Shown piece by piece: positions 24,258 through 63,973 of a stretch of 64,000 nt of DNA; the first letter of the stretch is position 1; each line of letters opens with the position of its first letter. The DNA comes from Eukaryota sp. GEM-RC1. Taxonomy: Eukaryota. The DNA is taken from assembly GCA_040285855.1 (NCBI GenBank), contig JAUFOQ010000005.1:1426001-1490000 (forward strand), given 5' to 3'. A program made the position numbers and the translations under genes. The notes beneath the pieces are model-generated. The model saw only the letters and a program-made list of their open reading frames with translations, was not told the origin of the DNA and made no database searches.

Positions 24258-25592
24258 TTAAGGTGTAATGAGTCCAATTACTCCCACTATTTTAAGTCTA
24301 GGATTAACTTTCAACACATCTGCCAAAGATCTAACACCTTCATCTCCAATAGAGTTATCCTCAAGATTAACGCTTGTAATTGAAGCATTAACTTTCAACA
24401 CATCTGCCAAAGATCTAACACCTTCATCTCCAATACAGTTATCCTCCAGATCAATACTTGAAACTGAAGTATTAACTTTCAACACATCTGCCAAAGATTT
24501 AACACCTTCAGCTCCAATAGAGTTTCCACCTAGATTAATACTTGTAACTGAAGCATTGACTCTCAACGCCTCTGCCAAAGCTCTGGCACCTTCAGCTCCA
24601 ATAGAGTTGAAACTCAGATCAATACTTGTAACTGAAGCATTGACTCTCAACGCCTCTGCCAAAGCTCTGGCACCTTCAGCTCCAATAGAGTTGAAACTCA
24701 GATCAATATTTGTAACTGAATTATTAACTTTCAACGCCTCTGCTAAAGCGCTGGCACCTTCAGCTCCAATGGAGTTATACAGCAGACAAATACTTGTAAT
24801 TGAAGCATTGACTTTCAACGCCTCTGCTAAAGCGCTGACACCTTCATCTCCGATAGAGTTTTCAGCTAAACTAACACTTGTAATTGAAGCATTGACTTTC
24901 AACGCCTCTGCCAAAGCTTTGGCACCTTCAGCTCCAATAGAGCTGTCCTCCAGATCAACACTTGTAACTGTAGTATTGGTTTTCAACGCTTCAATCAATA
25001 ACATAGAAAGAGAGGTGTTTCGTCTCGCTACTTCTACTTCTAGTTGCTTAAGACGTGGAAATAAAGAAGAAGAATTGTTTAGAAACTCTAAATCAGAAAA
25101 TTCCCTCAGTTTGATTCTCAATCCTGTAATTATACCAGAATAATTAAGAAATTTGCCAATTTCTGAGATTCCGTAAACGTACATGAAAACAGATTGTAAA
25201 TCAGCTCCAAAGAAAGAAGCAAGTGAAGTTAGTTTGGGAAGGTGTTCAAGATCAGCATGAAAGGTGTGTAATTGAAAAAACACTTTAACTGCTTGGAATG
25301 AAGAATCAAGGAAGTGATTACTTACATAGCCAACTTGTCCAAAGAATGCAGGTAACGCTGTTTTCAAAGTAGTGAGTCGAACATTGGTTCCATCATGATT
25401 ATTGATAAAACGTCTAAGCCAGTGAAGATGAATAAGAATCAACAAAGACTGCTGAACATGTATAGGTTTAGAGGGAGGATGTGTGGATGAAGACAAAACC
25501 GACAGTTCGTCACAGTTAGACATCACAGAGAAGACACTGGAAGGGTATGACCGACTCCTTTTCAACAAAGGTGCAGGGAGAGGTGTGACCAT
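24258..25592 (-). CDS. RI-like LRR family protein A, 8 x 28-aa repeats
   Basis: Intact ORF with the family-conserved ~200-aa N-terminal region and 8 repeats of NSIGxEGAxALAEALKVNxSVTSxxLxx. The start given is the ATG shared by all six paralogs; an in-frame ATG also exists at 25640. Confidence 0.9.
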   Translation of the reverse strand: MVTPLPAPLLKRSRSYPSSVFSVMSNCDELSVLSSSTHPPSKPIHVQQSLLILIHLHWLRRFINNHDGTNVRLTTLKTALPAFFGQVGYVSNHFLDSSFQAVKVFFQLHTFHADLEHLPKLTSLASFFGADLQSVFMYVYGISEIGKFLNYSGIITGLRIKLREFSDLEFLNNSSSLFPRLKQLEVEVARRNTSLSMLLIEALKTNTTVTSVDLEDSSIGAEGAKALAEALKVNASITSVSLAENSIGDEGVSALAEALKVNASITSICLLYNSIGAEGASALAEALKVNNSVTNIDLSFNSIGAEGARALAEALRVNASVTSIDLSFNSIGAEGARALAEALRVNASVTSINLGGNSIGAEGVKSLADVLKVNTSVSSIDLEDNCIGDEGVRSLADVLKVNASITSVNLEDNSIGDEGVRSLADVLKVNPRLKIVGVIGLITP

Positions 25593-25929
25593 AGATTGAT
25601 CAAGAAATGAGGACTTCTCAAACTTACTGATGTCTGTCATTCCCAACTTGGTTTTTAAAACCAAGAAACATCTGATCTCTCTAGTCACTGAAAGAACAGT
25701 ATTGTTAACCTAGGAATTGTCACCAAAATGACGTTCTTTGATGTTCAAGTTAATCACTGTACTTGATTGAATCCATTGTGATGAACTTTTCTTCCTGATG
25801 ACGTGAAAACTAATTGAGTATCTATATAAGATTCAGACTTTTCTTCTGTGACTTTAATTGGTAACATTGTTTTTTCAAGTTGGTGTACAAGGTTTAGCTA
25901 AATCTAGCACCATCTCTGAGTAGCTTCAG

Positions 25930-33313: not shown

Positions 33314-34337
33314 ATGCTTACTCCTCTTCCTGAACCTTTGTTGAAAAGGAGTCGTTCATCCCCTTCCAGTATCCCCTCTGTGATGTCTGACTGTGACGAA
33401 CTGTCGATGTTGTCTTCATCCACACATTTTCCCTCTAAACGTGTCCATGTTCAGCAGACTTTGTTGATTCTTATCCATCTCCATTTGCTTACACTTCTTT
33501 TCAAGCGCTCTCTCGAACTCCAAAAGATTCCTTTGCGGTTTATTGCTCAACTCACTGCTTTGAAAACAGTTTTACCTGCATTCTTTGGACAAGTTGGCTA
33601 TGTAAGTAATCACTTTTTTGATTCTTCATTCCAAGCAGTTAAACTGTGTTTTCAATTACACACCTTTCATGCTGGTCGCAAACACTTTCCCAAACTAATT
33701 TCACTTGCTTCTTTTTTTTGAAGCAGATCTACAATCTGTTTTCTTGCACACTGATGGAATTTTAGAAATTGAGAATTTTCTCAATTATTCTGGTATAATT
33801 ACAGGATTGAGAATCAAACTAAGAAAACTCTCTGATTTAGAGTTTTTAAATACTTCTTCTGCTTTTTTTCCACGTCTTAAAGAACTAGAAGTGGTAGTGA
33901 TCCAACACGCCCCTGTTTCTATGTTATTGATTGAAGCTTTGAAAACCAATACTACAGTTACAAGTGTGACCCTAGTTGGAAACTCTATCGGAGATGAAGG
34001 TGCCAGAGCTTTGGCAGGGGCTTTGAAAGTTAATTCTTCAGTTACAAGTGTTGATCTGTGTTTCAACTCTATCGGAGATGAAGGTGCCAGAGCTTTGGCA
34101 GGGGCTTTGAAAGTTAATTCTTCAGTTACAAGTGTTATTTTGGGTAGCAACTCTATTGGAGCTGAAGGTGCCAAAGGTTTGGCGGAGGCGTTGAAAGTTA
34201 ATGATACAATTACAAGTATTAATCTGAGGAACAACTGTATTGGAGATGAAGGAGAAGTAGCTTTGGTAGATGCGTTGAAAGTAAATCATAGAATTAAAAT
34301 AGAAGGAGCAACCGCAGTCTATAATCAGTTTTCATAG
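33314..34337 (+). pseudogene. RI-like LRR family protein B, 4 repeats, +1 frameshift in a T8 run
   Basis: ORFs 33314-33721 and 33705-34337 join if one T is removed from 33712-33719. Paralogs read TCT TTC TTT GGA here. Confidence 0.85.
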
Positions 34338-41814: not shown

Positions 41815-43491
41815 ATGGCCACAACTCGCCCTGAACCTTTGTTGCAAAGGAGTCGTCCATCCCCTTCCAGTATCTCCTCTGAGATGTCTAACTGTGGCGA
41901 AGTGTCGGTATTGTCTTCATCCACACTTTCTTCCTCTAAACGTGTCCATGTTCAGCAGACTTTGTTGATTCTGATCCATCTCCACTTGCTGAGACGTCTT
42001 TTCAACCGTACTCTTAAAAATAATCATGATCGAAATCCTCAACTCACTGATTTGAAAACAGCATTACCTGCATTCTTTGGACAAGTTGGCTATGTAAGTA
42101 ATCACTTTCTTGATTCTTCATTCCAAGCAGTTAAAGTCTATTTTCATTTACACACCTTTCATGCTTTTCACAAACACTTTCCCAGACTAATTTCACTTGC
42201 TTCTTTCTTTGGAGTAGATCTACAATCTGTTTTCTTGCACATTCCCGAAATCTTAGAAATTGAGAAATTTCTAAATTATTCTGGTATAATTACAGGATTG
42301 AGAATCGCACTATGGGAACCCTCTGATTTAGAGTTTCTAAACAATTCTTCTTCTTTATTTCCACGTCTTAAGCAGCTACAAGTAGAAGTGTTCCAACTCA
42401 CTGTTTCTATGTTATTGATTGAAGCGTTGAAAACCAATACTACAATTACAAGTATTAGTCTGTGTGAAAACTCTATTGGAGATGAAGGTGTCAGAGCTTT
42501 GGTAGAGGCATTGAAAGTTAATGTTTCAGTTACAAGTATTAATCTGTGTGAAAACTATATGGGAGATGAAGGTGTCAGAGCTTTAGCAGAGGCATTGAAA
42601 GTTAATGTTTCAGTTACAAGTATTTATCTGTGGAAAAACTCTATTGGAGATGAAGGTGCCAGAGCTTTGGCAGAGGCGTTGAAAGTGAATGCTTCAGTTA
42701 CAAGTGTTAATCTGGAGGATAACTCCATTGGAGCTGAAGGTGCCAGAGCTTTGGCAGAGGCGTTGAAAGTGAATGCTTCAGTTACAAGTGTTAATCTGGA
42801 GAATAACTCCATTGGAGCTGAAGGTGCCGAAGCTTTGGTAGATGCATTGAAAGTGAATGCTTCAGTAACAAGTGTTAATCTGAGTTACAACTCTATTGAA
42901 GATGAAGGTGCCAGAGCTTTGGCAGAGGCGTTGAAAGTGAATGCTTCAGTTACTAGTGTTAATCTTAGTCACAACTCTATTGGAGCTGAAGGTGCCAGAG
43001 CTTTGGCAGAGGCGTTGAAAGTTAATGTTTCAGTTACCAATGTTGATCTGTATGACAACTCTATTGGAGATGAAGGTGCCAGAGCTTTGGCAGAGGCGTT
43101 GAAAGTAAATGCTGCAGTTACCAGAATTGTTCTACGTGGAAACTCTATTGGAGATGAAGGTGCCAGAGCTTTGGCTGAGGCCTTGAAAGTTAATGTTTCA
43201 GTTACAAGTGTTGATCTAAGTAGAAACTCTATTGGAGATGAAGGTGCCAGAGCTTTGGCTGAGGCCTTGAAAGTTAATGTTTCAGTTACAAGTGTTGATC
43301 TAAGTAGAAACTCTATTGGAGATGAAGGTGCCAGAGCTTTGGCAGAGGCGTTGAAAGTTAATGTTTCAGTTACAAGTATTAATCTGTGGGAAAACTCTAT
43401 TGAAGATGAAGGTGCCAGAGCTTTGGCAGAGGCGTTGAAATTTAATCATAGAGTTGAAATAGAGGGTGTACGTCAACTTAATAGATTGTAA
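41815..43491 (+). CDS. RI-like LRR family protein C, 12 repeats
   Basis: Intact ORF from the family-conserved ATG with 12 tandem 84-bp units. Confidence 0.92.
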   Translation: MATTRPEPLLQRSRPSPSSISSEMSNCGEVSVLSSSTLSSSKRVHVQQTLLILIHLHLLRRLFNRTLKNNHDRNPQLTDLKTALPAFFGQVGYVSNHFLDSSFQAVKVYFHLHTFHAFHKHFPRLISLASFFGVDLQSVFLHIPEILEIEKFLNYSGIITGLRIALWEPSDLEFLNNSSSLFPRLKQLQVEVFQLTVSMLLIEALKTNTTITSISLCENSIGDEGVRALVEALKVNVSVTSINLCENYMGDEGVRALAEALKVNVSVTSIYLWKNSIGDEGARALAEALKVNASVTSVNLEDNSIGAEGARALAEALKVNASVTSVNLENNSIGAEGAEALVDALKVNASVTSVNLSYNSIEDEGARALAEALKVNASVTSVNLSHNSIGAEGARALAEALKVNVSVTNVDLYDNSIGDEGARALAEALKVNAAVTRIVLRGNSIGDEGARALAEALKVNVSVTSVDLSRNSIGDEGARALAEALKVNVSVTSVDLSRNSIGDEGARALAEALKVNVSVTSINLWENSIEDEGARALAEALKFNHRVEIEGVRQLNRL

Positions 43492-45137
43492 TTACTAATT
43501 AGTTTTCGATACAAATTGATTCTCGTTGTCCTTCACTATATCTAAGTGTAGTGTTTGTGAGGCATTGCATTTCTGACTGGATTTTCGATGATTTCTGTTT
43601 TCTCATGGTAAGAAGAATGTTTCTAGGTAATAGTCATTTCTTTACTTATCAATCATTTTAACTGAAGTTTTCAAATTTGATATCCGTAAAACAACATATT
43701 TCTGTTACATTAAGACGAACCCAACAGCCAGACGAAAATAGTCATACAATATTTTGGAAATCAGATACAATTTAAATCTATTTACCTCATAAATTTCAAA
43801 TCTTTCAAATCCTTAACTACTAACATCATTTACTGCATCAACGCTTTTAAACGTGGTGTTGTCTAAGATGTCGATACTTAGTTAGTTTCCCCGCTGCTGC
43901 TGACGTGGCCTGCTGACATGGCCACCAAGTCTTAAACAATTGTTGTTAATGTGCTGTACAGATCTGCATTTCTTCACTTTCGGTCAATGTTGGCCTTGGT
44001 TGCGGAAGTAAGTTATCTCAATCAATCATTACTGATGAAGATTTTGAATTAAATTATTGATTGCTGACAGTGGAAAAATTATAGTACTTACTATTTGTTT
44101 TTAGCATTCTTTAATATTTAAAAAAACTAAAATTTGATACCATTGAAACATCACCCATCACTAACAACAAAGCTTTGTCTTCATAAAAGGAACTCACCGT
44201 TAATAATGCTTTGGAGATGATTGTGACTACATAAACCGCACACAACTCTCTCTCCTCATGTCTTTTTCCCCTTCCCGTTTTATCAATATACAGCATAGAC
44301 AATATCGTCCTTTTAAAGATAAAGTGGGTTTACGTCACACAAAAAGCAAGAAGAACAATCGTCCCTTCTATTCTATTTACAGATTTCCAAGACAGAACAA
44401 TAGTTGGACTATTGATGAAGAAAAATACTGTTTTCAGCACAATCATGAGCTAATAGAAGAAAGCTGATATGGCTTCATTTCGTTCAAAACAAATGGATGG
44501 TGAACTAAAGTCCATGGCTTGTGCTATGTTGAAAGCTTTGATTCCTGCTTCAGACATACTGAGCTGTATTCAGCAGAAATTTCCTGAATCATCTTTAGTG
44601 CTGAACGATATTCATAACTTGCGAACTGAAACTTATAAGGTGGATCCCTTTATTTGTCAAACCGTGGATGAATAAATTAAAAATCTCCATGGAAAGAATT
44701 GTTTTATTGAAGTTAATTGGAATTCCCTTGGCCACATTACTCATTTAATGTTCCTCTCAAAAGAATCAGTTTCTCTTTATCAGGAATACGGAACGGTGCT
44801 TCAAATGGATTGGACCTACAAGACTAACAGCCACAAATTGTCCCTTATGGCTTTTGTAGGTAGAATTTTTCACATTGGTTTTGCATTTGTAACTTCTGAA
44901 TCATCTTTGGACTTCAATTGGTGCTTAAAACGATTTGAAGAAGTTACTGAATTAGTACCAGAATTATTTCTTACTGACCGAGACCTGGCACTCGTTAATG
45001 CCATTCAATTTATTTTCCCAGAAGAAAATGGAACTCAGCATTTGCTCTGTGTCTGGCACATATTTCAAAGAGTGGTAAAGAATTGTGCAAAATATTTTAA
45101 GGGTCGCAATAAGGCACAATTTGAAGATTTTTTGGTG
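43440..45137 (+). repeat. segmental duplication A (partner 59500-61172)
   Basis: Near-identical LRR C-terminus, 3' flank and MULE 5' half. Confidence 0.92.
44130..45137 (+). mobile_element. MULE (Mutator/FAR1-like) transposase, truncated copy
   Basis: HNHEL, DWTYKTN, FLTDRDLAL and HLLCVWH motifs. Breaks at 45137. Confidence 0.88.
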
Positions 45138-45146
45138 CTAATCTAG

Positions 45147-48100
45147 AATACAGTTTCTAAAGACCTTATTTCTTGAATTTCTTAGTGATAATCAGTCCAA
45201 CTCTAATTTTAAAATGAGTAATCTGAGTAGCTATGACATTGGATTACATGATCATGTGCTTTTTTTGAACAGTTTAATACTCATCAATCACCACTATGCA
45301 TAGAAGTGGCTCCTCATTCAATTCATTATGTTCTTTATGATCAACATTTTAATGACAATGATTCAATTTCACTTGTAACTGCTTTAAATTTTTATTTTCA
45401 TATTGAACGTGTCGAATGTCATGGTTTGAGAATTGTTCGGGGTTTAAAAAGTGTAAATGTTCACTGTTTTATTGCTTTATTTCCAATATATTCTTTGAGC
45501 GGATCAGTAATAGCGGTTGATATTTCCCCTCGTATAATTGAAACTTCTCTTGGTGTAGTTTATTACGACATAACGGTTGATAACTATGACTTAATTTCTC
45601 TTTTAACTGCTTCAAAATTGAATGATCCTAGTAAACGAGTCGAATGTCTTGGGCTTGAAACTCTCAGTTAAGAACGAATTATTAATATGAAGTTCTTTCC
45701 ATCAGCAGATCAATATTAGATGTTGATATTTCTCCTCACATTATTGACTTTGAAAATGCCGTGTTTTGTTTCTCACCAGAAACTCTTACTCAAATAACTT
45801 CTGAAGAACCCACAGCACTACCTGGTTTTTTGGATAGGTTTACTATCAAAGTATTTACTGTCCGAAACTGTCTCATTTGTCAATTTGGAGTGCCTGTTGT
45901 ACATGACGTCATCAAAAAACATTCAGTGACTTCTTTCAACTTCACAGTGCCTGAAAACAGTATTCTTGAATATCTCAATGAAAATCAGTCCATATCTAAT
46001 TTTGAAATGATCAATTTCAGCAACATTGATATTGGGTTTAATACTCTTTTGACTATGTTCAAAGAGTTTTCTACTCACGAATCACCACCAATTGTCGAAG
46101 TTTATCCTCATTCTATTGACTTTTCTCTTGGTATTATCAGTTGTTATGGTACTATCAGTTGGTATGGTACTATTTCAAGAACTGATATGTATTCACTTAT
46201 TGATGTCTTAAATTTAAAGCTACCCATAAAACGTGTTGACTGTCATGGATTAATTGATCCCTGTTTTGATTGTATTGTTGCCCTATATCACCTTCTTTTC
46301 ATTAACAATTCATTGATTGATGTAGATATTTTTTCCTCATTACATTGACACAGAATCTGGAATTTTTTCCTTTTCAACACTAAATCATATTGAAATTACT
46401 GTTGAGAATGTCTGTGATTTAAGTTCCTTTGATCTTAAAGAACTCACCTTACAAAAATGGCGTTTTGCTGACGATGGTTTGACAGTGTTATGTGATTTGT
46501 TAATGGTCAATACTTACTAACTTATCTTGAATTATCTGATTGTGATTTGTCTGATACAGATTTCTTGAGAATAGTTGATTCTCTTCGACTTAATTCCTCT
46601 TTAAATGTTAGATCAATGTACTTCGGGGGTAATTTATTTGGAAATCGCAGTGCAAAAGCCTTAGCCGAATTATTGAAAGAAAATACTACAGTATCCAAAA
46701 TTCATCTTTGGGGTAATTTTATTGGTAATCAAGGTGCTTTAGGATTTTCAAACTTATTGATGTTAAATTACACTATTGAAGTTATTAATCTAGGGAATAA
46801 CCCTATTAATCAAGGTACTAAAGCAGAGATTCAAAAATTATCCAATGGAAAGATTGTATTTCACTAGAAGTAATCAATCAGTCAGTCAGTATTCGTGGGA
46901 AATCAATCATAAATTCGCCACTCTTTGTCGTGACTTCAAGAACTTATCAAAACAAATCGACTTTTTGATGAGTTTTGACCTTGTGACGGGGGTGTCATTT
47001 GAGGTATTAAAAATTGTTACAATAAAAATCTATAATTCTATTGTTGATTTGTATCTTCTTCTACTCATGTAAAATACCGTTTTGTTCAGATAAGCTCAAA
47101 ACTTTGTTAAAATCTTAATTATATTTAATTACCTGTGGTTGGGTGCATCTTTTATTAGTAAGGGTTGATCGGGTAGTTATGGATATTGATGTTTAACCTC
47201 ATATTTTAGATGTGTTTGATTAAATATTCGCCCCAGGAATTTGTTACACCAACTTTCAACGAAGTTTCATTGTTAAAGTCTGATTTACAGAACTTTTGCA
47301 TCAAATTGTTGTCCTTAATCCATTGAGATTTTTCCAATGAAATTACTCCTCTGTGTGACCAAGTCAGTGCCAATCAATCATTGACTTCTGTTAACTTCAG
47401 TCACTGTCAGCTGGCCAACAAGGATTTCTCTTCTTTGTCAATAACTCTCAGTGAAATGACTTCTATACGTCTTATTAACTTAAGTAATCCAAATCTTACA
47501 ATTCACTGTCATTCGGATTTTCTGCCACAGTTTTGAGTTGTTAAGTCAATACCAGTATTTGAAGTTTGCCTCATTATTTTGATATTTCTACTGGCTACAT
47601 TGATTTTCACGGTTATATCAGCAACTTTAGTTTAAGGTCACTATTAGATGTTTTTAAATCAAACGTTTCTATTAAACGAGGTCACTGTCGTGGGTTCAAG
47701 AATCCCAGTTTTAATGACTTTTTTATGTTGATTGAAATTTTTTCTATATCAAAATCAGTTATTGATTTGACTGTCCTCACCTTGTAGACATTTGGATTGT
47801 TTGGTTTTTCCCCATGTACATGTGTGCTATTGACTTCCTAAGAAGTCATATCTCTAAAATGTTTTGTGATCAAAGAGCTTTATCTTCCCCATAATGCAAT
47901 CAGTCTATTAAGTGATTTAATAAGAATCAATTCTTCATCGACTTTTGTTGACCTCAGTAACACACAATTTACAGACTTTAATTTCTCTGTTTCAGGCTGA
48001 TGTTCTCATGAGGCCCATCAACATACGTTATATCAATCTAAGTGATGCAAACCTTCAGTTTAGTCATCTTTTGATAATTTTGCGAACAGTTTTCTACTCA

Positions 48101-50337
48101 CGAATCACCACCAATTATTGAAGTTTATCCTCATTCTATTGATTTTTCTCTTAGTACTATCAGTTGTGTTGATACTACATATTTCAGATACTGATGTATA
48201 TTCACGTAGTGCGTAGTTTGTTGGTAATCAAAAGTAGTACTTACTCCAATGGTAATGTGAAGGAAAAACAAAAGTGGTTTAATCGTGGAGTAAACGAGAA
48301 AGGTAAAAGGGAAGCGATTTTAAGAAATGAAGTTGTGGAACTCTATTATGGAAGGGCAAGTGAAATGGATTCTCTCAGATATTGTCAAGTATAGTTATGG
48401 ATGATAGACATATAGTAAGTTTGAGATTGTATTCTATCTTTCTTACGTTGACTTACTTACTTTTGCTTATTGTCCCGCAAAACAAATCATGATGGCACTG
48501 GAACAAAAATTTCACATATGAAGTTCTGAGGTTGTCCTGGTATTATTATTACGCACACAGCTTACGTTCCGTAGCTCAAGATAGCCCACGTTTTCCTACT
48601 TTCCAAATCTGCATAGTCTCCAGATCATGTTTCCTTTACAAACTGTGATGTAAAAGTGGAGAAATTCTATTGGATACTGTCTTTTCTATTATTCCACATG
48701 AAAAGTAACACATTGAGCTTCATATTGAATTCATTCCAACAATCACCTTCTGATCCGTTCAGAGTAGGGTCGAGTAAACAACATTTGTATTTAAATATTT
48801 GAAATATAAGCAGTGTGTATATTTATTTTCGGCAGCGGACAAACTGCAGTATATATTTTTCAGAAGTCAAAAACAATTGATTATTTTTTCGTTTTTCTCC
48901 GTCTATGAGACCAAAACTGCTCAAGATGCTGACATTCATCACTTTGTCGCCATTGAGACCGGTCATGAAACTCCCGAGGAAATCCAATTAAAATTAAATA
49001 ACCCAAGATAAATGTTCAAATAGTATATAGAAAATTGATGACTATGAGGAAAATGATTCCATTACAATGAACTCAGTTGATATGTAAGAACAACACGACA
49101 TGTCATTTTCCAAAAGTAGAATCGACCAATAAATAGCTCAAGATTAGTGTCGATTTATTTAATTATTTGATAGCAGAGGTTCGGTAGAACTAAAACGTTC
49201 AAAACAGTGTCAAACTGGGAGCCATCAATCCCACGAGCTTAATGTGAACCATTGTGTTATGATGAAATTCAATCCGAACCACGAATCCAACATGTACTGA
49301 TAAATCTACGGATGTAAAAGGCATATTGGAATGATAAGGTATTCAATGATGTGAGTCCAAATCTACACATTTCTGATCACCATCGCACTAAAAGCGACAA
49401 GATTGTAACAAGGAATCGCATTGAATAATTGACATGCTCTCTAATTCTGATATATTGTAGCATTGATTCTGAGCACCACAATACGTCATTTTTGATGAAC
49501 AGTCTCACGTTGTCTAGAAGAATGATTCATGACGGATTAAAAGGATTAACTGACGATAGTTCAGGTGACTAGTTCAGGTGATTCTAAGATGGGAACCACA
49601 AGATGTCTGATGAAAGACATTAGTAAGTTTGAGAGAACGCAGAAAGTTCTCATTTCTTAATCCATCAATGGCCACACCTCGCCCTGAATCTTTGTTGCAA
49701 AGGAGTCGTCCATCCCCTTCCAGTATCTCCTCTGAGATGTCTAACTGTGGCGAACTGTCGATATTGTCTTCAACCACACATCCTCCCTCTAAACGTGTCC
49801 ATGTTCAGCAGACTTTGTTGATTCTGATACATCTTCACTTGCTGAGACGTCTTCTCAACCGTACTCTTGAAAATAATCACGATCGAAATCCTCAACTCAC
49901 TGATTTGAAAGCAACACTACCTGAATTCTTTGAACAAGTTGGCTATGTAAGTAATCACTTCCTTGATTCTTCATTCCATGCAGTTAAAGTCTTTTTTCAG
50001 TTATACACTTTTGATGCTTATCTTAAAGACCTTCCCAAGCTAATTTCACTTGCGTCTTTCTTTGGAGTGGATCTACAATCGGTTTTCATGTACGCTTACA
50101 GAACCCTAGAAATTGAGAACTTTCTTAATTATTCTGGTTTAATTACAGGATTCGGAATCGAACTAAGGGAACCCTCTGATTTAGAATTTCTAAACACTTC
50201 TTTTTCTTTATTTCCACGTCTTAAGCAACTAGAAGTAGAAGTGTTCCAACGCACCTCTGTTTCTATGTTATTGGTTGAAGCGTTGAAAACCAATACTACA
50301 GTTACAAGTGTTACTCTAGATGGAAACTCTATTGGAG
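45147..50337 (+). repeat. segmental duplication B (partner 53660-58887)
   Basis: ~5.2 kb of near-identical sequence ending in the first LRR unit of genes D and E. Confidence 0.92.
45165..48205 (+). pseudogene. decayed 'PHSID/IKRVxCxG' repeat-protein genes, copy 1
   Basis: ORF pieces 45306-45671, 45761-46348, 46547-46867 (terminal RI-like LRRs) and 47566-47787 carry recurring motifs. Confidence 0.7.
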
Positions 50338-50661
50338 CTGAAGGTGCCAGAGCTTTGGCAGAGGCGTTAAAAGTTAATACTTCAGTTACAAGTATCTATC
50401 TGATGAACAACTTTATTAGAGATGAAGGTCCCAGAGCTTTGGCAGAGGCGTTAAAAGTTAATACTTCAGTTACAAGTGTTACTCTGCGGTGCAACTCTAT
50501 TGGAGATGAAGGCGCCCAGAGCTTTGGCAGAGGCGTTAAAAGTTAATACTTCAGTTACAAGTATTGATCTGAGTTACGACTCTATTGGAGATGAAGGTGT
50601 CAGAGCTTTGGCAGAGGCGTTAAAAGTTGATTCTAGACTTACAATCTGGGCAGTAAACTGA
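49668..50661 (+). pseudogene. RI-like LRR family protein D, 4 repeats, +1 frameshift near 50516
   Basis: GGCGCCCAGA at 50511-50520 vs consensus GGTGCCAGA. The downstream frame restores the repeat. Confidence 0.85.
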
Positions 50662-52785: not shown

Positions 52786-53675
52786 AAAAAGATGGGGTTT
52801 ATGATCAGTCACTGAAATAAATGCATTTGCAGAAGTTAATAACTAACAGACACTAACTAAAGTATATAAACTATGATCCTTCTGTCTATCACCGAACAAC
52901 TTACTTAAAATTGAATTAAAATATCTGTGCATTGAACGAAACAACGCAAAAGTTAACGTACTCAACCAAAAATCTTCATTGCACATTTTACCGTACTCAG
53001 GACATAATTTACCAAAAGAAGTTAAAAAACCTTGTGCAGCTGGTTTCAATATTACCGTATATCGACATCGCAAAGGTTGAAACACAATAAAATTGTACCT
53101 GTCAACATTAAATTGGTTTATTAAGTGACAATATTTTGTTCTTTTTCCTTTTTCAGCCACTTCAAGAGCAGAAAAATCATCAAAAATTTTGGAAATTGAT
53201 CTTGAATTACAAGGATCAACAGTCGTGAAATCCATAATAATTTCCTGACAAGATAACCAAGGACCAATCAAATCACCACGACTTCTTTCAACTTTTGGCT
53301 GATCAGAAAGATTAGCAAGTAAAGGGTCAATTTTTCCATGAAAACCATTAGCCTTAAACATATCCAAACATGTATCTCGGATACTGTAGTGAATAATTGA
53401 CCAAAATGAATAAATTGATGACAGTTAACTAAATGATGAAAATTTGAAGCCTTTGAACGACCACAAAGACATGCAGAATGCTTCAAAAGACCTCAAGGCC
53501 ATAAACCTAACCTAAGTCTCATGTTTATAAGCCATTCATGATTCTTAAGATTAAAACAAAATTTTCTTGGCAAACGAGAAACAAATGAAGACGCAGCGAT
53601 TGAAGAAATAATATTCAAAAAAAAGCACAAAATGCGGGACTCTTAGTCTTAGCCAAGCAAATACAGTTTCTAAAG
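52786..53675 (-). mobile_element. 5'-truncated RLE-type non-LTR retrotransposon, copy 3
   Basis: Highly similar to 18954-19845. TSD ATCTTATTTCT at 52775-52785 and 53676-53686. Confidence 0.9.
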
Positions 53676-53686
53676 ATCTTATTTCT

Positions 53687-56600
53687 TGAATTTCTTAGTG
53701 ATAATCAGTCCAACTCTAATTTTAAAATGAGTAATCTGAGTAGCTATGACATTGGATTACATGATCATGTGCTTTTTTTGAACAGTTTAATACCCATCAA
53801 TCACCACTATGCATAGAAGTGGCTCCTCATTCAATTGATTATGTTCTTTATGATCAACATTTTAATGACAATGATTCAATTTCACTTGTAACTGCTTTAA
53901 ATTTTTATTTTCATATTGAACGTGTCGAATGTCATGGTTTGAGAATTGTTCGGGGTTTAAAAAGTGTAAATGTTCACTGTTTTATTGCTTTATTTCCAAT
54001 ATATTCTTTGAGCAAATCAGTAATAGCGGTTGATATTTCCCCTCGTATAATTGAAACTTCTCTTGGTGTTGTTTATTACGACATAACGGTTGATAACTAT
54101 GACTTAATTTCTCTTTTAACTGCTTCCAAAATTGAATGATCCTAGTAAACGAGTCGAATGTCTTGAACTTGAAACTCTCAGTTAAGAACGAATTATTAAT
54201 ATATTTGAAGTTCTTTCCATCAGCAGATCAGTATTAGATGTTGATATTTCTCCTCACATTATTGACTTTGAAAATGCCGTGTTTTGTTTCTCACCAGAAA
54301 CTCTTACTCAAATAACTTCTGAAGAACCCACAGCACTACCTGGTTTTTTGGATAGGTTTACTATCAAAGTATTTACTGTCCGAAACTGTCTCATTTGTCG
54401 ATTTGGAGTGCCTGTTGTACATGACGTCATCAAAAAACATTCATTGACTTCTTTCAACTTCACAGTGCCTAAAAACAGTATTCTTGAATTTCACAATGAA
54501 AATCAGTCCATATCTAATTTTAAAATGATCAATTTCAGCAACATTGATATTGGGTTTAATACTCTTTTGACTATGTTCAAAGAGTTTTCTACTCACGAAT
54601 CACCACCAATTGTCGAAGTTTATCCTCATTCTATTGACTTTTCTCTTGGTATTATCAGTTGTTATGGTACTATCAGTTGGTATGGTACTATTTCAAGAAC
54701 TGATATGTATTCACTTATTTATGTCTTAAATTTAAAGCTACCCATAAAACGTGTTGACTGTCATGGATTAATTGATCCCTGTTTTGATTGTATTGTTGCC
54801 CTATATCACCTTCTTTTCATTAATAATTCATTGATTGATGTAGATATTTTTCCTCATTACATTGACACAGAATCTGGAATTTTTTCCTTTTCAACACTAA
54901 ATCATATTGAAATTACTGTTGAGATTGTCTGTGATTTAAGTTCCTTTGATCTTAAAGAACTCACCTTACAAAAAGAGCGTTTTGCTGACGATGGTTTGAC
55001 AGTGTTATGTGATTTGTTAATGGTCAATACTTACTAACTTATCTTGAATTATCTGATTGTGATTTGTCTGATACAGATTTCTTGAAAATAGTTGATTCTC
55101 TTCGACTTAATTCCTCTTTAAATGTTAGATCAATGTACTTCGGGGGTAATTTTTTTTTGGAAATTGCAGTGCAAAAGCCTTAGCCGAATTATTGAAAGAA
55201 AATACTACAGTATCCAAAATTCATCTTTGGGGTAATTTTATTGGTAATCAAGGTGCTTTAGGATTTTCAAACTTATTGATGTTAAATTACACTATTGAAG
55301 TTATTAATCTAGGGAATAACCCTATTAATCAAGGTACTAAAGCAGAGATTCAAAAATTATCCAATGGAAAGATTGTATTTCACTAGAAGTAATCAATCAG
55401 TCAGTCAGTATTCGTGGGAAATCAATCATAAATTCGCCACTCTTTGTCGTGACTTCAAGAACTTATCAAAACAAATCGACTTTTTGATGAGTTTTGGCCT
55501 TGTGACGGGGGTGTCATTTGAGGTATTAAAAATTGTTACAATAAAAATCTATAATTCTATTGTTGATTTGTATCTTCTTCTACTCATGTAAAATACCGTT
55601 TTGTTCAGATAAGCTCACAACTTTGTTAAAATCTTAATTATATTTAATTACCTGTGGTTGGGTGCATCTTTTATTAGTTAGGGTTGATCGGGCAGTTATG
55701 GATATTGATGTTTAACCTCATATTTTAGATGTGTTTGATTAAATATTCGCCCCAGGAATTTGTTACACCAACTTTCAACGAAGTTTCATTATTAAAGTCT
55801 GATTTACAGAACTTTTGCATCAAATTGTTGTCCTTAATCCATTGAGATTTTTCCAATGAAATTACTCCTCTGTGTGACCAAGTCAGTGCCAATCAGTCAT
55901 TGACTTCTGTTAACTTCAGTCACTGTCAGCTGGCCAACAAGGATTACTCTTCTTTGTCAATAACTCTCAGTGAAATGACTTCTATACGTCTTATTAACTT
56001 AAGTAGTCCAAATCTTACACTTCACTGTCATTTGGATGTTCTGCAACAGTTTTGAGTTGTTAAGTCAATACCAGTATTTGAAGTTTGCCTCATTATTTTG
56101 ATATTTCTACTGGCTACATTGATTTTCACGGTTATATCAGCAACTTTAGTTTAAGGTCACTATTAGATGTTTTTAAATCAAACGTTTCTATTAAATGAGT
56201 TCACTGTCGTGGGTTCAAGAATCCCAGTTTTAATGACTTTTTTATGTTGATTGAAATGAATTCTATATCAAAATCAGTTATTGATTTGACTGTCCTCACC
56301 TTGTAGACATTTGGATTGTTTGGTTTTTCCCCATGTACATGTGTGCTATTGACTTCCTAAGAAGTCATATCTCTAAACTCCTTTTAAAATGTTCTGTGAT
56401 CAAAGAGCATTATCTTCCCCATAATGCAATCAGTCTATTAAGTGATTTAATAAGAATCAATTCTTCATCGACTTTTGTTGACCTCAGTAACACACAATTT
56501 ACAGACTTTAATTTCTCTGTTTCAGGCTGATGTTCTCATGAGGCCCATCAACATACGTTATATCAATCTAAGTGATGCAAACCTTCAGTTTAGTCATCTT

Positions 56601-56735
56601 TTGATAATTTTGCGAATAGTTTTCTACTCACGAATCACCACCAATTATTGAAGTTTATCCTCATTCTATTGATTTTTCTCTTAGTACTATCAGTTGTGTT
56701 GATACTACATATTTCAGATACTGATGTATATTCAC
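53687..56735 (+). pseudogene. decayed 'PHSID/IKRVxCxG' repeat-protein genes, copy 2
   Basis: Duplicate of 45165-48205 with both shared and private lesions. Confidence 0.7.
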
Positions 56736-58216
56736 GTAGTGCGTAGTTTGTTGGTAATCAAAAGTAGTACTTACTCCAATGGTAATGTGAAGGAAAAACA
56801 AAAGTGGTTTAATCGTGGAGTAAACGAGAAAGGTAAAAGGGAAGCGATTTTAAGAAATGAACTTGTGGAACTCTATTACGGAAGGGCAAGTGAAATGGAT
56901 TCTCTCAGATATTGTCAAGTCTAGTTATGGATGATAGACATATAGTAAGTTTGAGATTGTATTCTATCTTTCTTACGTTGACTTACTTACTTTTGCTTAT
57001 TGTCCCGCAAAACAAATCATGATGGCACTGGAACAAAAATTTCACATATGAAGTTCTGAGGTTGTCCTGGTATTATTATTAGGCACACAGCTTACGTTCC
57101 GTAGCTCAAGATAGCCCACGTTTTCCTACTTTCCAAATCTGCATAGTCTCCAGATCATGTTTCCTTTACAAACTGTGATGTAAAAGTGGAGAAATTCTAT
57201 TGGATACTGTCTTTTCTATTATTCCACATGAAAAGTAACACATTGAGCTTCATATTGAATTCATTCCAACAATCACCTTCTGATCCGTTCGGAGTAGGGT
57301 CGAGTAAACAACATTTGTATTGAAATATTTGAAATATAAGCAGTGTGTATATTTATTTTCGGCAGCGGACAAACTGCAGTATATATTTTTCAGAAGTCAA
57401 AAACAATTGATTATTTTTTCGTTTTTCTCCGTCTATGAGACCAAAACTGCTCAAGATGCTGACATTCATCACTTTGTCGCCATTGAGACCGGTCATGAAA
57501 CTCCCGAGGAAATCCAATTAAAATTAAATAACCCAAGATAAATGTTCAAATAGTATATAGAAAATTGATGACTATGAGGAAAATGATTCCATTACAATGA
57601 ACTCAGTTGATATGTAAGAACAACACGACATGTCATTTTCCAAAAGTAAAATCGACCAATAAATAGCTCAAGATTAGTGTCGATTTATTTAATTATTTGA
57701 TAGCAGAGGTTCGGTAGAACTAAAACGTTCAAAACAGTGTCAAACTGGGAGCCATCAATCCCACGAGCTTAATGTGAACCATTGTGTTATGATGAAATTC
57801 AATCCGAACCACGAATCCAACATGTACTGATAAATCTACGGATGTAAAAGGCATATTGGAATGGTAAGGTATTCAATGATGTGACACGTCATCAAAAGGA
57901 ACAGTCCAAATCTACACATTTCTGATCACCATCGCACTAAAAGCGACAAGATTGTAACAAGGAATCGCATTGAATAATTGGCATGCTCTCTAATTCTGAT
58001 ATATTGTAGCATTGATTCTGAGCACCACAATACGTCATTTTTGATGAACAATCTCACGTTGTCTAGAAGAATGATTCATGACGGATTAAAAGGATTAACT
58101 GACGATAGTTCAGGTGACTAGTTCAGGTGATTCTAAGATGGGAACCACAAGATGTCAGATGAAAGACATTAGTAAGTTTGAGAGAACGCAGAAAGTTCTC
58201 ATTTCTAAATCCATCA

Positions 58217-59550
58217 ATGGCCACACCTCGCCCTGAATCTTTGTTGCAAAGGAGTCGTCCATCCCCTTCCAGTATCTCCTCTGAGATGTCTAACTGTGGC
58301 GAACTGTCGATATTGTCTTCAACCACACATCCTCCCTCTAAACGTGTCCATGTTCAGCAGACTTTGTTGATTCTGATACATCTTCACTTGCTGAGACGTC
58401 TTCTCAACCGTACTCTTGAAAATAATCACGATCGAAATCCTCAACTCACTGATTTGAAAGCAACACTACCTGAATTCTTTGAACAAGTTGGCTATGTAAG
58501 TAATCACTTCCTTGATTCTTCATTCCAAGCAGTTAAAGTCATTTTTCAGTTATACACTTTTGATGTTGATCTTAAAGACCTTCCCAAGCTAATTTCACTT
58601 GCGTCTTTCTTTGGAGTGGATCTACAATCGGTTTTCATGTACGCTTACAGAACCCTAGAAATTGAGAACTTTCTTAATTATTCTGGTTTAATTACAGGAT
58701 TCGGAATCGAACTAAGGGAACCCTCTGATTTAGAATTTCTAAACACTTCTTTTTCTTTATTTCCACGTCTTAAGCAACTAGAAGTAGAAGTGTTCCAACG
58801 CACCTCTGTTTCTATGTTATTGGTTGAAGCGTTGAAAACCAATACTACAGTTACAAGTGTTACTCTAGATGGAAACTCTATTGGAGATGAAGGTGCCAGA
58901 GCTTTGGCAGAGGCATTGAAAGTAAATATTTCTATTACAAGTGTTAATCTGTGGGAAAACTCTAAGGTGCCAGAGCTTTGGCAGAGGCCTTGAAAGTTAA
59001 TTCTTCAGTTACAAGTGTTGATCTAAGCAGAAACTCTATTGGAGCTGAAGGTGCCAGAGCTTTGGCAGAGACGTTGAAAGTTAATGCGTCTGTTACAAGT
59101 GTTAATCGTAGTAACAACTCTATTGGAGCTGAAGGTGCTAGAGCTTTGGCAGAGGCGTTGAAAGTTAATTCTTCACTTACAAGTATTAATCTAGGCGGAA
59201 ACTTTATTAAAGATGAAGGTGCCAGAGCTTTGGCAGAGGCGTTGAAAGTGAATGCTTCAGTAACAAGTGTTAATCTGTGGCGAAACTCTATTGGAGCTGA
59301 AGGTGCTAGAGCTCTGGCAGAGGCGTTGAAAGTAAATGCTGCAGTTACCAGAATTGATCTACGTGAAAACTCTATTGGAGATGAAGGTGCCAGAGCTTTG
59401 GCAGAGGCGTTGAAAGTGAATGCTTCAGTAACAAGTATTGATCTGGAGTATAACTCTATTGGAGATGAAGGTGCCAGAGCTTTGGCAGAGGCGTTGAAAG
59501 TTAATCATAGAGTTGAAATAGAGGGTGTACGTCAACGTAATAGATTGTAA
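58217..59550 (+). pseudogene. RI-like LRR family protein E, 8 repeats, 10-bp deletion near 58963
   Basis: AACTCT-AAGGTGCC vs consensus AACTCT ATTGGAGATG AAGGTGCC. Confidence 0.88.
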
Positions 59551-60189: not shown

Positions 60190-61941
60190 ATTTGATACCA
60201 TTGAAACATCACCCATCACTAACAACAAAGCTTTGTCCTCATAAAAGGAACTCACCGTTAATAATGCTTAGGAGATGATTGTGACTACATACACCGCACA
60301 CAACTCTCTCTCCTCATGTCCCGTTTTATCAAAATACAGCATGGACAATATCGTCCTTTAAAAAGATAAAGTGGGTTTACGTCACACAAAAAGCAAGAAG
60401 AACAATCGTCCCTTCTATTCTATTTACAGATTTCCAAGACAGAACAATAGTTGGACTATTGATGAAGAAAAATACTGTTTTCAGCACAATCATGAGCTAA
60501 TAGAAGAAAGCTGATATGGCTTCATTTCGTTCAAAACAAATGGATGGTGAACTAAAGTCCTTGGTTTGTGCTATGTTGAATGCTTTGATTCCTGCTTCAG
60601 ACATACTGAGCTGTATTCAGCAGAAATTTCCTGAATCATCTTTAGTGCTGAAAGATATTCATAACTTGCGAACTGAAACTTATAAGGTGGATCCCTTTAT
60701 TTGTCAAACCGTGGATGAATTAATTAAAAATTTCCATGGAAAGAATTGTTTTGTTGAAGTTAATTGGAATTCCCTTAGCCACATTACTTATTTAATGTCC
60801 CTCAGTTTCTCTTTATCAGGAATACGGAACGGTGCTTCAAATGGATTGGACCTACAAGACTAACAGCCACAAATTGTCCCTTATGGCTTTTGTAGGTAGA
60901 ATTTTTCACATTGGTTTTGCATTTCTAACTTCTGAATCATCTTTGGACTTCAATTGGTGCTTAAAACGATTTGAAGAAGTTACTCAATTAGTACCAGAAT
61001 TATTTCTTACTGACCGAGACCTGGCACTCGTTAATGACATTCAATTTATTTTCCCAGAAGAAAATGGAACTCACCATTTGCTCTGTGTCTGGCACATATT
61101 TCAAAAGTGGTAAAGAATTGTGCAAAATATTTTAAGGGTCGCAATAAGGCACAATTTGAAGATTTTTTGGTGAGTTTAAAGCAATTGATTGGTATTAAAA
61201 GACCAGCAGAATATCCAGAAGCAGAGAGAATGTTCAAGAAAAAATTTAGTTTTGTCCCCAAGACTGTTAAATACCTGGACGATGAGTGGCTGAAGTATAT
61301 GGAAAAGTTTGTCCACTGTTTCTTTCAAGGAAAAATTAACTTAGGACAAGTTACAACATCCAGAGAATCTGGCCATCAAGCTGTGAAAAGAAGATTGAGG
61401 CTGAGTGTAGCCCCAATGAATGTTGTAATTGCCAAAGTTTCACAACACTTGAACCTCCAAATGCAAGCATTCAGAATTAATGGGGAAAGAGAGAAGAATT
61501 CTACTTGAACAGAGTTTCTCTCAAGTGAGTGGAAAGAGTTATTCCAACAAGTAAACAGAAAGATTTCAGGCAACGTACTGAGGAAAGTACTTGCAGTTGC
61601 TAAGAACTGCAAGTACTTTCATCATTACATTGAGTGAAACAATTTTATTAGACGAGTGTTTAGATGAATGTTTAAAACACGAAGGGCTTCCTTGTTGCAA
61701 AGAGATTCATTCATTAATTGAAACAGGGGAATCTTTGAATCAAGAACACTTCCTTCGACAATGGTCAGGGCAAAACAACCCACAAGAAGAAGAGACTGAG
61801 AAACTGATTATCGAAATGATTGACCAAGTTAATGGAGAAGACGAAGAGTTCAAAAGAATGTTTCTTCAACATGCAAAGTGTTTCATGGAAGAGCAAAAGG
61901 GATTATTAAAGGGACCAGAGTGTAAGCGCAAGAGGGGATAA
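60190..61941 (+). mobile_element. MULE (Mutator/FAR1-like) transposase pseudogene
   Basis: HNHEL, DWTYKTN, TDRD, CVWH, TTSRESGH and SWIM-like GLPC. Several frameshifts. GCTGACGTGGC/GCTGACATGGC motifs at ~59958-59981 may be subterminal. Confidence 0.9.
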
Positions 61942-62119
61942 GATTTCTTTAGTTAATAACTCAATATGTTTTTGATATGGAATAGGGAAGAATGATGCAA
62001 GAGAAATCAGCTTGAGACACAACATAAACAAGAATGTCGTGTGGAGACTCTCCCACTGGAGAGTAAAATGTCGTGTGGTGTATATAGTCTATCCCGAAAG
62101 ACCACACTTTGATCTATCA

Positions 62120-63973
62120 ATGGTCACCCCTCGCCCTGATTCTTTGTTGCAAAGGAGTCGTTCAATTTCTCCCGTTACCTCGTCTGTGATGTCTAACTCT
62201 GACGAACTGTCTGTATTGTCTTCAACCACACATCCTCCCTCTAAACGTGTCCATGTTCAGCAGTCTTTGTTGATTCTGATACATCTACACTTGCTGAGAC
62301 GTCTTCTCAACCGTACTCTTAAAAATAATCATGATCGAACTAATCCTCAACTGACTGCTTTGAAAACAGCATTACCTGCATTCTTTGGACAAGTTGGCTA
62401 CGTAAGTAATCACTTCCTTGATTCTTCATTCCAAGCAGTTAAAGTCTATTTTCATTTACACACCTTTCATGCTGATCACAAACACTTTCCCAGACTAATT
62501 TCACTTGCTTCTTTCTTTGGAGTAGATCTACAATCTGTTTTCTTGCACATTCCCGAAAGCTTAGAAATTGAGAAATTTCTAAATTATTCTGGTATAATTA
62601 CAGGATTGAGAATCGAACTAAGGGAACCCTCTGATTTAGAGTTTCTAAACAATTCTTCTTCTTTATTTCCACGTCTTAAGCAGCTAGAAGTAGAAGTGCC
62701 GAGACAACGCTCCTCTGTTTCTATGTTATTGATTGAAGCTTTGAACACCATTACTACAGTTACAAGTGTTGATCTAACTGGAAACTCTATTGGAGATGAA
62801 GGTGCCAGAGCTTTGGCAGAGGCGTTGAAAGTTAATACTTCAGTTACAAGTATTAATCTACGGGGCAACTCTATTGGAGATGAAGGTGCCAGAGTTATGG
62901 CAGATGCGTTGAAAGTGAATGCTTCATTTACAAGTGTTAATCTGAGTTACAACTCTATTGGAGATGAAGGTGCCAGAGTTATGGCAGATGCGTTGAAAGT
63001 TAATACTTCAGTTACAAGTATTGATCTGGGTGGAAACTCCATTGGAGCTGAAGGTGCCGAAGCTTTGGCAGATGCATTGAAAGTGAATGCTTCAGTTACA
63101 AGTGTTAATCTGAGTTACAACTCTATTGGAGATGAAGGTGCCAGAGTTATGGCAGATGCGTTGAAAGTTAATACTTCAGTTACAAGTGTTAATCTGAGTT
63201 ACAACTCTATTGGAGATGAAGGTGCCAGAGCTTTGGCAGAGGCGTTGAAAGTGAATTCTTCAGTTACAAGTATTGATCTGGGTGGAAACTCTATTGGAGA
63301 TGAAGGTGCCAGAGCTTTGGCAGAGGCGTTGAAAGTGAATTCTTCAGTTACAAGTATTGATCTGGGTGGAAACTCTATTGGAGATGAAGGTGCCAGAGCT
63401 TTTGCAGAGGCGTTGAAAGTCAATGATTCAGTTACCAATATTCATCTGCATGGCAACTCTATTGGAGCTGAAGGTGCCAGAGCTTTGGCAGATGCATTGA
63501 AAGTCAATACTTCAGTTACAAGTGTTAATCTGGGTGGAAACTCTATTGGAGATGAAGGTGCCAGTGCTTTGGCAGAGGCGTTGAAAGTCAATACTTCAGT
63601 TACAAGTATTAATTTAGGTAAAAACTCTATTGGAGATGAAGGTGCCAGAGCTTTGGCAGAGGCCTTGAAAGTTAATGGTTCAGTTACAAGTATTTGTCTG
63701 TGGAAAAACTCTATTGGAGATGAAGGTGCCAGAGCTTTGGCAGAGGCATTGAAAGTGAATGCTTCAGTTACAAGTGTTAATCTGCACTACAACTGTATTG
63801 GAGCTGAAGGTGCCAGAGCTTTGGCAGATGCATTGAAAGTCAATACTTCAGTTACAAGTGTTAATCTGAGTTACAACTCTATTGGAGATGAAGGTGCCAG
63901 AGCTTTGGCAGAGGCGTTGAAAGTTGATCATAGAGTTAAAATACAGGGTGTAGGTCAACTTAATAGATTGTAA
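62120..63973 (+). CDS. RI-like LRR family protein F, 14 repeats
   Basis: Intact ORF from the family-conserved ATG. The track's longer start at 62012 lies in non-homologous sequence. Confidence 0.92.
   Translation: MVTPRPDSLLQRSRSISPVTSSVMSNSDELSVLSSTTHPPSKRVHVQQSLLILIHLHLLRRLLNRTLKNNHDRTNPQLTALKTALPAFFGQVGYVSNHFLDSSFQAVKVYFHLHTFHADHKHFPRLISLASFFGVDLQSVFLHIPESLEIEKFLNYSGIITGLRIELREPSDLEFLNNSSSLFPRLKQLEVEVPRQRSSVSMLLIEALNTITTVTSVDLTGNSIGDEGARALAEALKVNTSVTSINLRGNSIGDEGARVMADALKVNASFTSVNLSYNSIGDEGARVMADALKVNTSVTSIDLGGNSIGAEGAEALADALKVNASVTSVNLSYNSIGDEGARVMADALKVNTSVTSVNLSYNSIGDEGARALAEALKVNSSVTSIDLGGNSIGDEGARALAEALKVNSSVTSIDLGGNSIGDEGARAFAEALKVNDSVTNIHLHGNSIGAEGARALADALKVNTSVTSVNLGGNSIGDEGASALAEALKVNTSVTSINLGKNSIGDEGARALAEALKVNGSVTSICLWKNSIGDEGARALAEALKVNASVTSVNLHYNCIGAEGARALADALKVNTSVTSVNLSYNSIGDEGARALAEALKVDHRVKIQGVGQLNRL

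Follow-up and report, generated by a model that had tools for sequence, protein, structure and literature searches.

In fungi, the WD40, ANK and TPR repeats of NOD-like receptor (NLR) proteins evolve in concert, and a few codons, located at the binding face, are under selection (PMC1805685; PMC4986451). In the brown alga Ectocarpus, the leucine-rich repeat (LRR) exons of ROCO and LRR-kinase genes are shuffled and carry positively selected sites at the concave face (PMC3341825). Large young LRR families, in genes with 90-bp exons, are found in Tetrahymena (PMC6564038). Here we describe an LRR family hosted by a 64,000-nucleotide stretch of Eukaryota sp. GEM-RC1 (contig JAUFOQ010000005.1, positions 1,426,001 to 1,490,000), hereafter the window; Skoliomonas sp. 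GEM-RC is a free-living anaerobic metamonad (PMC11316075). Six genes of the window, named A to F, carry arrays of 84-bp units, in which two adjacent codons are hypervariable. The array pattern is real and well above chance, and by analogy the family appears to work in the manner of the recognition repeats of fungal NLRs, which evolve in concert. A family of this kind is already known from fungi and brown algae; new here are the metamonad host, the intronless and ATPase-less organization and the family's own N-terminal module.

The arrays of the window share with fungal NLR-like proteins (Podospora het-d/het-e, NWD family) the exchange of repeats within and between loci, a few hypervariable codons per repeat at the binding face, a variable number of repeats and pseudogenes. 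They differ because in fungi WD40, ANK or TPR repeats are joined to a NACHT or NB-ARC ATPase and have a known role in non-self recognition, whereas here repeats are LRRs of the ribonuclease inhibitor (RI) type and no ATPase is present. Unlike in the fungal repeats, a local ratio of nonsynonymous to synonymous rates (dN/dS) above 1 at the hypervariable codons is not significant here. Birth and death of genes and repeat shuffling are shared with the Ectocarpus and Tetrahymena families, for which somatic recombination has also been hypothesised. In those families each repeat corresponds to an exon and arrays are fused to ROCO or kinase domains; the arrays of the window are intronless and are joined to a lineage-specific module.

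Each unit encodes 28 residues fitting the consensus N-x-S-V-T-S-[VI]-x-L-x-x-N-S-I-G-[DA]-E-G-A-R-A-L-A-E-A-L-K-V. The 50 units (8 in A, 4 in B, 12 in C, 4 in D, 8 in E and 14 in F) form continuous arrays without introns, and every array is part of a gene that has an N-terminal module of its own. The reading frame is open in A, C and F. Gene A (24258..25640, minus strand; database protein P0013) encodes 460 amino acids from the first ATG, has its units at 24306-24977, and features a second ATG at 25592 that coincides with the start used by the paralogues. Genes C (41815..43491, plus strand, units at 42436-43443) and F (62120..63973, plus strand, units at 62750-63925) encode 558 and 617 amino acids, respectively. 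The other genes, all on the plus strand, are frameshifted as assembled. The frame of gene B (33314..34337, units at 33948-34283) is broken by one surplus T in the T run 33712-33719, a stretch omitted by the database model P0113. Gene D (49668..50661, units at 50292-50628) has one surplus C in unit 3 (50515-50517) and ends in a short, distinct C-terminus. Gene E (58217..59550, units at 58841-59502) has lost 10 nucleotides after position 58963, in unit 2, and shows in addition a Leu-to-Arg change at a core position. The breaks in B and D both fall in homopolymer runs, and may be long-read errors.

The two hypervariable codons, 10 and 11 of the unit, lie between a conserved Leu and a conserved Asn. 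The six lists of dipeptides given by an earlier, sequence-only reading of this DNA are exact: the 50 units feature 29 distinct dipeptides, encoded by 33 distinct hexamers, with zero stops. When the six dipeptide columns are shuffled, 6.4 stops are expected per 50 units, and none of 2000 shuffles was free of them. Amino acid entropy, calculated on the 48 intact units (D3 and E2 left out), is 3.2 bits at codon 10 and 3.0 bits at codon 11, and does not exceed 1.05 bits at the 24 scaffold codons. The residue preceding Leu also varies, as that reading had stated (codon 8, 2.2 bits); codon 2, which it had passed over, is equally variable (2.2 bits). Its statement that the two codons change at all positions has to be restricted, because in the 50 units A is absent from the third position of codon 10, and G from that of codon 11. 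All the codon states (19 at codon 10, 16 at codon 11) can be linked by single-base steps.

The scaffold had been described as almost invariant, third codon positions included, but it is not: over 75 scaffold bases, units differ at 10% of positions within genes and at 12% between genes. The synonymous p-distance of the scaffold is 0.152 within and 0.179 between genes, and that of the N-terminal domains of the same genes is 0.158 (D/E pair left out). Third positions are fixed at codons 1, 12, 15, 17, 21 and 27, and vary widely at codons 28 (0.65), 25 (0.49) and 9 (0.46). The scaffold is young rather than frozen. What stands out is the age of repeats within a gene, which is about that of the gene duplications, so that arrays are rebuilt on the same time scale.

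Repeats are exchanged both within and between loci, as in arrays of the fungal NLR type. The scaffold nearest to a given unit is found in another gene for 21 of the 50 units and in the same gene for 20, the remaining 9 being ties. The farther apart two variable columns lie in the unit, the weaker is their linkage (a value as low came up in 0 of 2000 permutations), and six hexamers are common to more than one gene, letter for letter. The homogenisation of the scaffold proposed by the earlier reading holds in that units are exchanged within and between genes; the synonymous homogeneity of the scaffold is, however, no greater than that of the rest of the genes.

Exchange is also seen in genes C, D and E. 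A 5.1 kb segment ending in unit 1 of gene D (45147..50291) is duplicated at 53660..58840, where it ends in unit 1 of gene E; the two copies differ by 59 mismatches and 38 gap columns in 5182 columns. The 3' flank of gene C (43444..45137) is in turn repeated behind gene E at 59503-61172, with 33 mismatches and 26 gap columns in 1695 columns (2% divergence). The N-terminal domains of D and E are 99.4% identical, and identity stops at base 47 of unit 1. Gene E is a mosaic, D-like through base 46 of unit 1, and followed by an array and a 3' flank that are C-like. All seven later E units are nearer to C than to D units, yet they are 5-11 bases away from the nearest one, and their order differs from that of C. 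As units lie 5-11 bases off next to a flank diverging by 2%, exchange took place inside the array, which turns over faster than its flanks; the mosaic is in this respect a natural clock. Units recombine internally and with each other, the array of a recent duplicate has turned over fast, and genes are born and die in the window. The D (49668-50291) and E (58217-58840) N-terminal domains differ at four sites, all nonsynonymous and confined to a stretch of about 15 codons in the region of the third helix and first degenerate repeat.

Codons 10 and 11 change faster than neutral sites. Independently of any tree, a minimum of 18 single-base changes is required at codon 10 and of 15 at codon 11. The yardstick is the fourfold degenerate scaffold site, with 2.25 changes each; six such sites would accumulate 13.5 changes, against at least 33 at the dipeptide (P=5e-6; 0.009 at the upper confidence limit of the yardstick). 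In a codon model fitted on two trees, the nonsynonymous rate of the dipeptide is 4.9-10.9 times the synonymous rate of the scaffold, local dN/dS is 5.5-8.2 at codon 8 and 6.6-10.6 at codon 2 (p 0.001-0.04), and scaffold dN/dS is 0.40-0.54 (p 3e-4 or less against 1). L, I, V, P and Q together account for only 2 of the 100 dipeptide residues, whereas simulations gave 10.5-15.2 (P 0.001-0.026). The absence of one base from each third position has a P of 0.013-0.076 under blanket hypermutation and of 0.19-0.26 under selection; both this test and the residue-set test were chosen after the data had been seen. The enrichment in Trp plus Tyr varies with the ancestral codon assumed, and is not claimed.

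Several results weigh against an explanation by diversifying selection. At codons 2 and 8 the tree-free count reveals no excess (p 0.24-0.36). At the dipeptide, local dN/dS is 1.3-1.9, not significantly above 1 (p 0.47 and 0.15), because the synonymous rate of the dipeptide is itself raised, being 3.4-5 times that of the scaffold (p 0.009 and 0.004). A synonymous ratio so high was reached in 0 of 96 simulations of pure selection, and in 7 of 100 in which hexamer conversion was allowed. Among hexamer pairs one step apart, 3 of 22 are synonymous, a share not significantly lower than the neutral 24% (p=0.20). The ratio of nonsynonymous to synonymous differences (pN/pS) in the N-terminal domains is 0.77, and three of the six genes are frameshifted. 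The diversifying selection or targeted mutation postulated by the sequence-only reading finds support in the rate of codons 10-11, which outpace neutral sites, but not in their local dN/dS. Of the two findings that together would have spoken against it, a dN/dS near 1 and no excess over the synonymous scaffold sites, the former is approached and the latter is contradicted by a large excess.

Frameshifts, the pN/pS of 0.77 of N-terminal domains and the dipeptide dN/dS near 1 would all suit a weakly constrained family, amplified by tandem duplication in a transposon-rich region, in which the dipeptide is just the least constrained site and the proteins play no part in recognition; gypsy, hAT, MULE (Mutator-like element) and non-LTR-like fragments (LTR, long terminal repeat) are indeed found between the genes. 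Unconstrained sites, however, cannot outpace neutral ones, as the dipeptide does (33 changes versus 13.5), and a scaffold dN/dS significantly below 1, the absence of stops and the apparent filtering of residues are at odds with loose constraint. We consider this explanation unlikely.

The raised synonymous rate, and its rarity in simulations of selection alone, could alternatively denote targeted mutation or programmed short-tract conversion at the six bases following the conserved Leu codon, possibly in clonal lineages, selection merely purging stops and misfolded products. Twofold degenerate sites differ in 36 of 174 pairs encoding the same residue, against 0.016-0.038 in the scaffold, though pairs are not independent; the third base of the adjacent Leu codon is diverse as well. 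Among the 30 pairs of units with 3 or fewer scaffold differences, 7 have identical hexamers, and 19 have hexamers differing at 3-5 bases. Yet the third base of the downstream Asn codon is invariant, identical hexamers recur across genes, and distantly related organisms have arrays that vary at these very positions. The lack of stops, the scarcity of L, I, V, P and Q and the base missing from each third position speak against blanket hypermutation. The connection of codon states by single-base steps points the same way, but weakly, since 41% and 22% of random sets are similarly connected. Scaffold adenines are conserved, unlike in the mutagenesis carried out by diversity-generating retroelements (DGRs), and the sole reverse transcriptase (RT) of the window belongs to an LTR-type pol. 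On balance, a targeted process appears rather improbable.

The fold predicted for the products is like that of RI, as the earlier reading had held, and like that of the LRR domains of NLRP proteins. Matches to Pfam LRR_6 have E values of 1e-43 to 1e-88, and the structure model of gene A (mean predicted local distance difference test, pLDDT, 84) consists of repeated strand-helix units, for which Foldseek returned as top matches NLRP LRR domains and ribonuclease inhibitor (E about 1e-15 to 1e-18); the 28-residue length agrees with the RI-like LRR class, characterized by LxxLxLxxNxL repeats of 28-29 residues with a long helix and by a horseshoe fold. From the N-terminus, the model shows a disordered Ser/Pro-rich tail (1-64), three helices (63-124), degenerate units and the RI-like solenoid. 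DSSP assigned on the model a strand to positions 6-8 of each unit, and the dipeptide to the loop directly following. The end of the beta-strand and the loop after it make the ligand surface of RI-like LRRs. The variable residues are accordingly placed, at the level of predicted secondary structure, on the ligand face, where the earlier reading had located them. In Kyte-Doolittle plots (19 residues) no hydrophobic segment of A, C or F exceeds 1.57, and the three proteins are therefore probably cytosolic.

The N-terminal part, about 220 amino acids long, contains in all six genes of the window a conserved module, corresponding in gene A to about residues 55-221 (24978..25478, minus strand) and predicted to fold into three helices and three degenerate LRR-like beta-alpha units. 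No match to NACHT or NB-ARC was found in genes A, C and F, among the best 25 of 69 families (49 members) or in 75 further members, and no kinase in the family members scanned. The module fits the consensus QQSLL..LI..HLL...L..FF.KVGYVS..FF, in which the tract QQSLL...KVGYVS..F resembles by eye an F-box pattern. The named neighbours of the module in the Atlas are F-box clusters, at 0.79-0.84, a level often reached by shuffled proteins. These leads tentatively suggest an adaptor of a Skp1-cullin ubiquitin ligase, an assignment somewhat less likely than not. Pfam detected no F-box in 49, 75 or 32 family members, a profile search against PDB sequences gave no match, and F-box proteins were not listed by Foldseek or VIA fold searches of the module, which does not exclude them; all this speaks against the assignment. 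With the module as query, Foldseek gave no match at E<=0.001, and the best VIA hits were TIM-barrel fragments (Z 5.9). A complex predicted for the module and a substitute Skp1, taken from a different eukaryote, scored 0.02; it was modelled without alignments, and the fold of the partner was uncertain. Seven of 49 aligned members carry an RNA recognition motif (RRM) as an extra N-terminal domain (P0086, residues about 35-120, and six others), with eIF4H (E 4e-6) and eIF4B (E 3e-5) as best PDB matches; two members match a Sina-type RING, and P0069 matches a SWIM finger. The RRM, RING and SWIM domains located ahead of the module look like captured host domains, in the style of integrated decoys.

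Overall, the data are probably best accounted for by a large, lineage-specific LRR family, in which repeats are shuffled in the germline and selected at ligand-facing sites, and which is likely to constitute an inherited library of cytoplasmic binders of foreign or fast-changing proteins. Its 28-residue repeats undergo duplication and are traded inside genes and from one gene to another, and unequal crossing-over, together with short gene conversion, would keep the scaffold young. Hexamer alleles at codons 10-11, retained by selection, may outlast the scaffolds and be reshuffled among younger ones, which would also raise synonymous diversity at the dipeptide. At the few sites predicted to lie on the ligand side, novel residues are likely to have a selective advantage, and the concave face would bind varied targets. 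The conserved module could couple the bound target to one shared machine, for which a Skp1-cullin ubiquitin ligase is the leading candidate, given the motif likeness by eye and the weak Atlas leads. As targets, viral proteins or those of intracellular bacteria would be the likeliest.

The variable face could instead be selected for endogenous partners, such as self proteins, prey-derived products or molecules of kin recognition, the module not being a ligase adaptor. Nothing clearly resembling the module turned up in the fold searches (best VIA Z 5.9), and LRR genes of Tetrahymena have been proposed to handle products of bacterial food (PMC6564038). Rapid birth and death and diversifying change are, however, generally more typical of conflict systems, and the fusions of relatives to eIF4B/4H-like RRM, RING and SWIM domains seem to resemble integrated decoys, so that we give this option a small probability. 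More improbable still is an antibody-like intracellular defence, in which more than 100 LRR binders would deliver targets to degradation through a divergent F-box, some displaying a captured domain as bait (the eIF4B/4H-like RRM), and the dipeptide would be diversified by targeted mutation or programmed conversion, possibly during clonal growth. That variation is an artefact of long-read assembly in collapsed repeats deserves hardly any credence: two of the three frameshifts do fall in homopolymer runs, but errors would not focus on two codons, spare stops and recur as identical hexamers across genes, and 50 other family proteins show the same profile.

The family extends well beyond the window. 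The N-terminal module is present in 154 clusters at 50% identity; the 10 sampled are all from GEM-RC1, and a search with the N-terminal region matched 33 proteins, all of them either from GEM-RC1 or gene A itself. All named relatives bearing the module thus come from a single metamonad. In a quick tree of 60 rows, from which gene B was left out, the window genes fall inside a clade of 27 rows (SH-aLRT branch support 97), 25 of which come from the window or the same contig. Relatives encoded by the same contig (19 proteins) feature 63 dipeptides in 113 units, and 31 other relatives 101 dipeptides in 194 units, as selected by a filter that fixes the anchor residues. Among the 120 matches listed for gene C, 41 are from Eukaryota sp. 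GEM-RC1, one is gene A, and the 78 others are mostly NACHT-LRR proteins. In these 78 non-metamonad matches mean identity is 0.82 at the scaffold and 0.25 at the dipeptide, and scaffold identity is at least 0.75 in 66. They include NLRC3-like NACHT-LRR proteins of corals and RI-like LRR proteins of Mortierellomycota, which are 40-61% identical to gene C over the array and share the homogeneous scaffold and the variability at positions 8, 10 and 11. They differ in being mostly NACHT-bearing and 630-980 amino acids long, and none is found among the matches to the N-terminal module; the likeness of repeats may reflect convergence on the RI-like consensus. A paper on a coral genome reports NLR expansions, and does not mention this repeat pattern in its accessible parts (PMC10236652).

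On a phage-like contig (L001:3081-7058, and similarly L002), four short genes in tandem consist almost entirely of this type of 28-residue RI-like LRR, variable at positions 6, 8, 10 and 11 (23 units); terminase- and portal-like open reading frames (ORFs) are recognizable by eye. The variability of the same positions in the 78 non-metamonad proteins and in L001 points to a cause acting at the protein level. Two RI-like LRR genes (225-1313 and 4968-6275) are found in a giant-virus-like contig (L003), and a divergent Skp1 homologue in a further viral contig (L007:189-755); a Skp1 search of three viral records found none. DNA patterns of the scaffold had no match in metagenome or viral contigs, and the family alignment, searched through patterns taken from the N-terminal module, detected no relative in metagenome or GTDB contigs. 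In viral contigs the family alignment matched four loci, limited to the LRR part. No published account of this LRR family was found, subscription papers being outside the search. In PMC11316075 the word 'leucine' is absent from the main text, and 'leucine', 'LRR' and 'Skp1' are absent from the text supplements; one picture-only file, unsearched, could bear on this.

Comparable families are known in bacteria. Protochlamydia has six recent LGR paralogues with 5-18 concatenated 28-residue RI-like LRRs (PMC2216083), and expansions of F-box-LRR and BTB-LRR proteins (NEX1, PEX1) in Parachlamydiaceae associate a conserved N-terminal ubiquitin-ligase adaptor to variable LRR arrays (PMC4209131). LGR, NEX1 and PEX1 are reported to be under purifying selection without concerted evolution, and NEX1 and PEX1 have recognizable F-box or BTB domains; the family of the window is eukaryotic, and its F-box is putative.

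The variable lymphocyte receptors (VLRs) of lampreys, and the transcription activator-like effectors (TALEs) with their repeat-variable diresidues (RVDs), are likewise built of modular repeats, in which a constant frame carries surface residues that vary, and the sequence-only reading had called the repertoire RVD-like or VLR-like. VLRs are secreted or GPI-anchored, have a signal peptide, LRRNT and LRRCT caps and 24-residue LRRs, and are assembled somatically from cassettes. The proteins encoded in the window have a Ser/Pro-rich disordered N-terminus, no strongly hydrophobic segment and 28-residue units; identity with VLRs was rejected for the lack of a secretion signal and for unit length. 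Assembly from cassettes is not apparent in the window, where each array belongs to a gene that has its own module. TALE repeats are helical hairpins of 33-35 residues, in which the dipeptide reads DNA bases. Here the predicted fold is a beta-alpha LRR solenoid, on which ground TALE identity was rejected, and no TALE-like code is found. Identity with NLRs was similarly rejected, as no NACHT or NB-ARC is present among the members scanned and the N-terminal part measures about 220 amino acids. DGRs feature a template repeat, a dedicated RT and adenine-specific changes. They were rejected because all four bases take part in the changes while adenines of the scaffold are conserved, and because the only RT found in the window sits in a retrotransposon of the protease-RT-RNase H-integrase type.

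The strategy of shuffled scaffolds and variable faces is extended by this family to Metamonada, a deep eukaryotic branch in which no such family was found in the literature searched, and to an architecture that lacks ATPase and kinase and in which repeats do not correspond to exons. Should the module prove to link targets to a ligase, the family would become a candidate for an intracellular immune system in an anaerobic protist that can be cultured. Because the synonymous rate of the dipeptide is raised, targeted or somatic diversification of LRRs in protists becomes testable.

Additional features were noted in the window, in which Rfam gave no match. Long ORFs antisense to the arrays were rejected on sequence inspection as a by-product, because that frame closes wherever a sense codon ending in T precedes a Tyr codon. 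Genes with degenerate LRR-like repeats are found at 29548-31655 (minus strand) and, on the plus strand, at 45147-48212, 53660-56742 and 16940-18091; they are partly duplicated with the D/E segment, and are split into several ORFs. Two paralogous genes encoding BTB domains are located at 6151-7104 and 12312-13968, and one also encodes a coiled coil. Both end by eye in a SPRY-like region, the second being apparently frameshifted near 13727; their products are possible cullin-3 adaptors lying within the same cluster. Remains of mobile elements are dense (25904-29517, 38180-40195, 44676-45146, 61038-61508, 19011-20183, 52843-53424 and 9238-9654). Repeated fragments, which have no Pfam match, resemble by eye the ends of non-LTR endonucleases. 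Protease, RT, RNase H and an integrase zinc finger are recognizable in an LTR-type pol, and further remains are of hAT, with a BED finger, and of MULE type.

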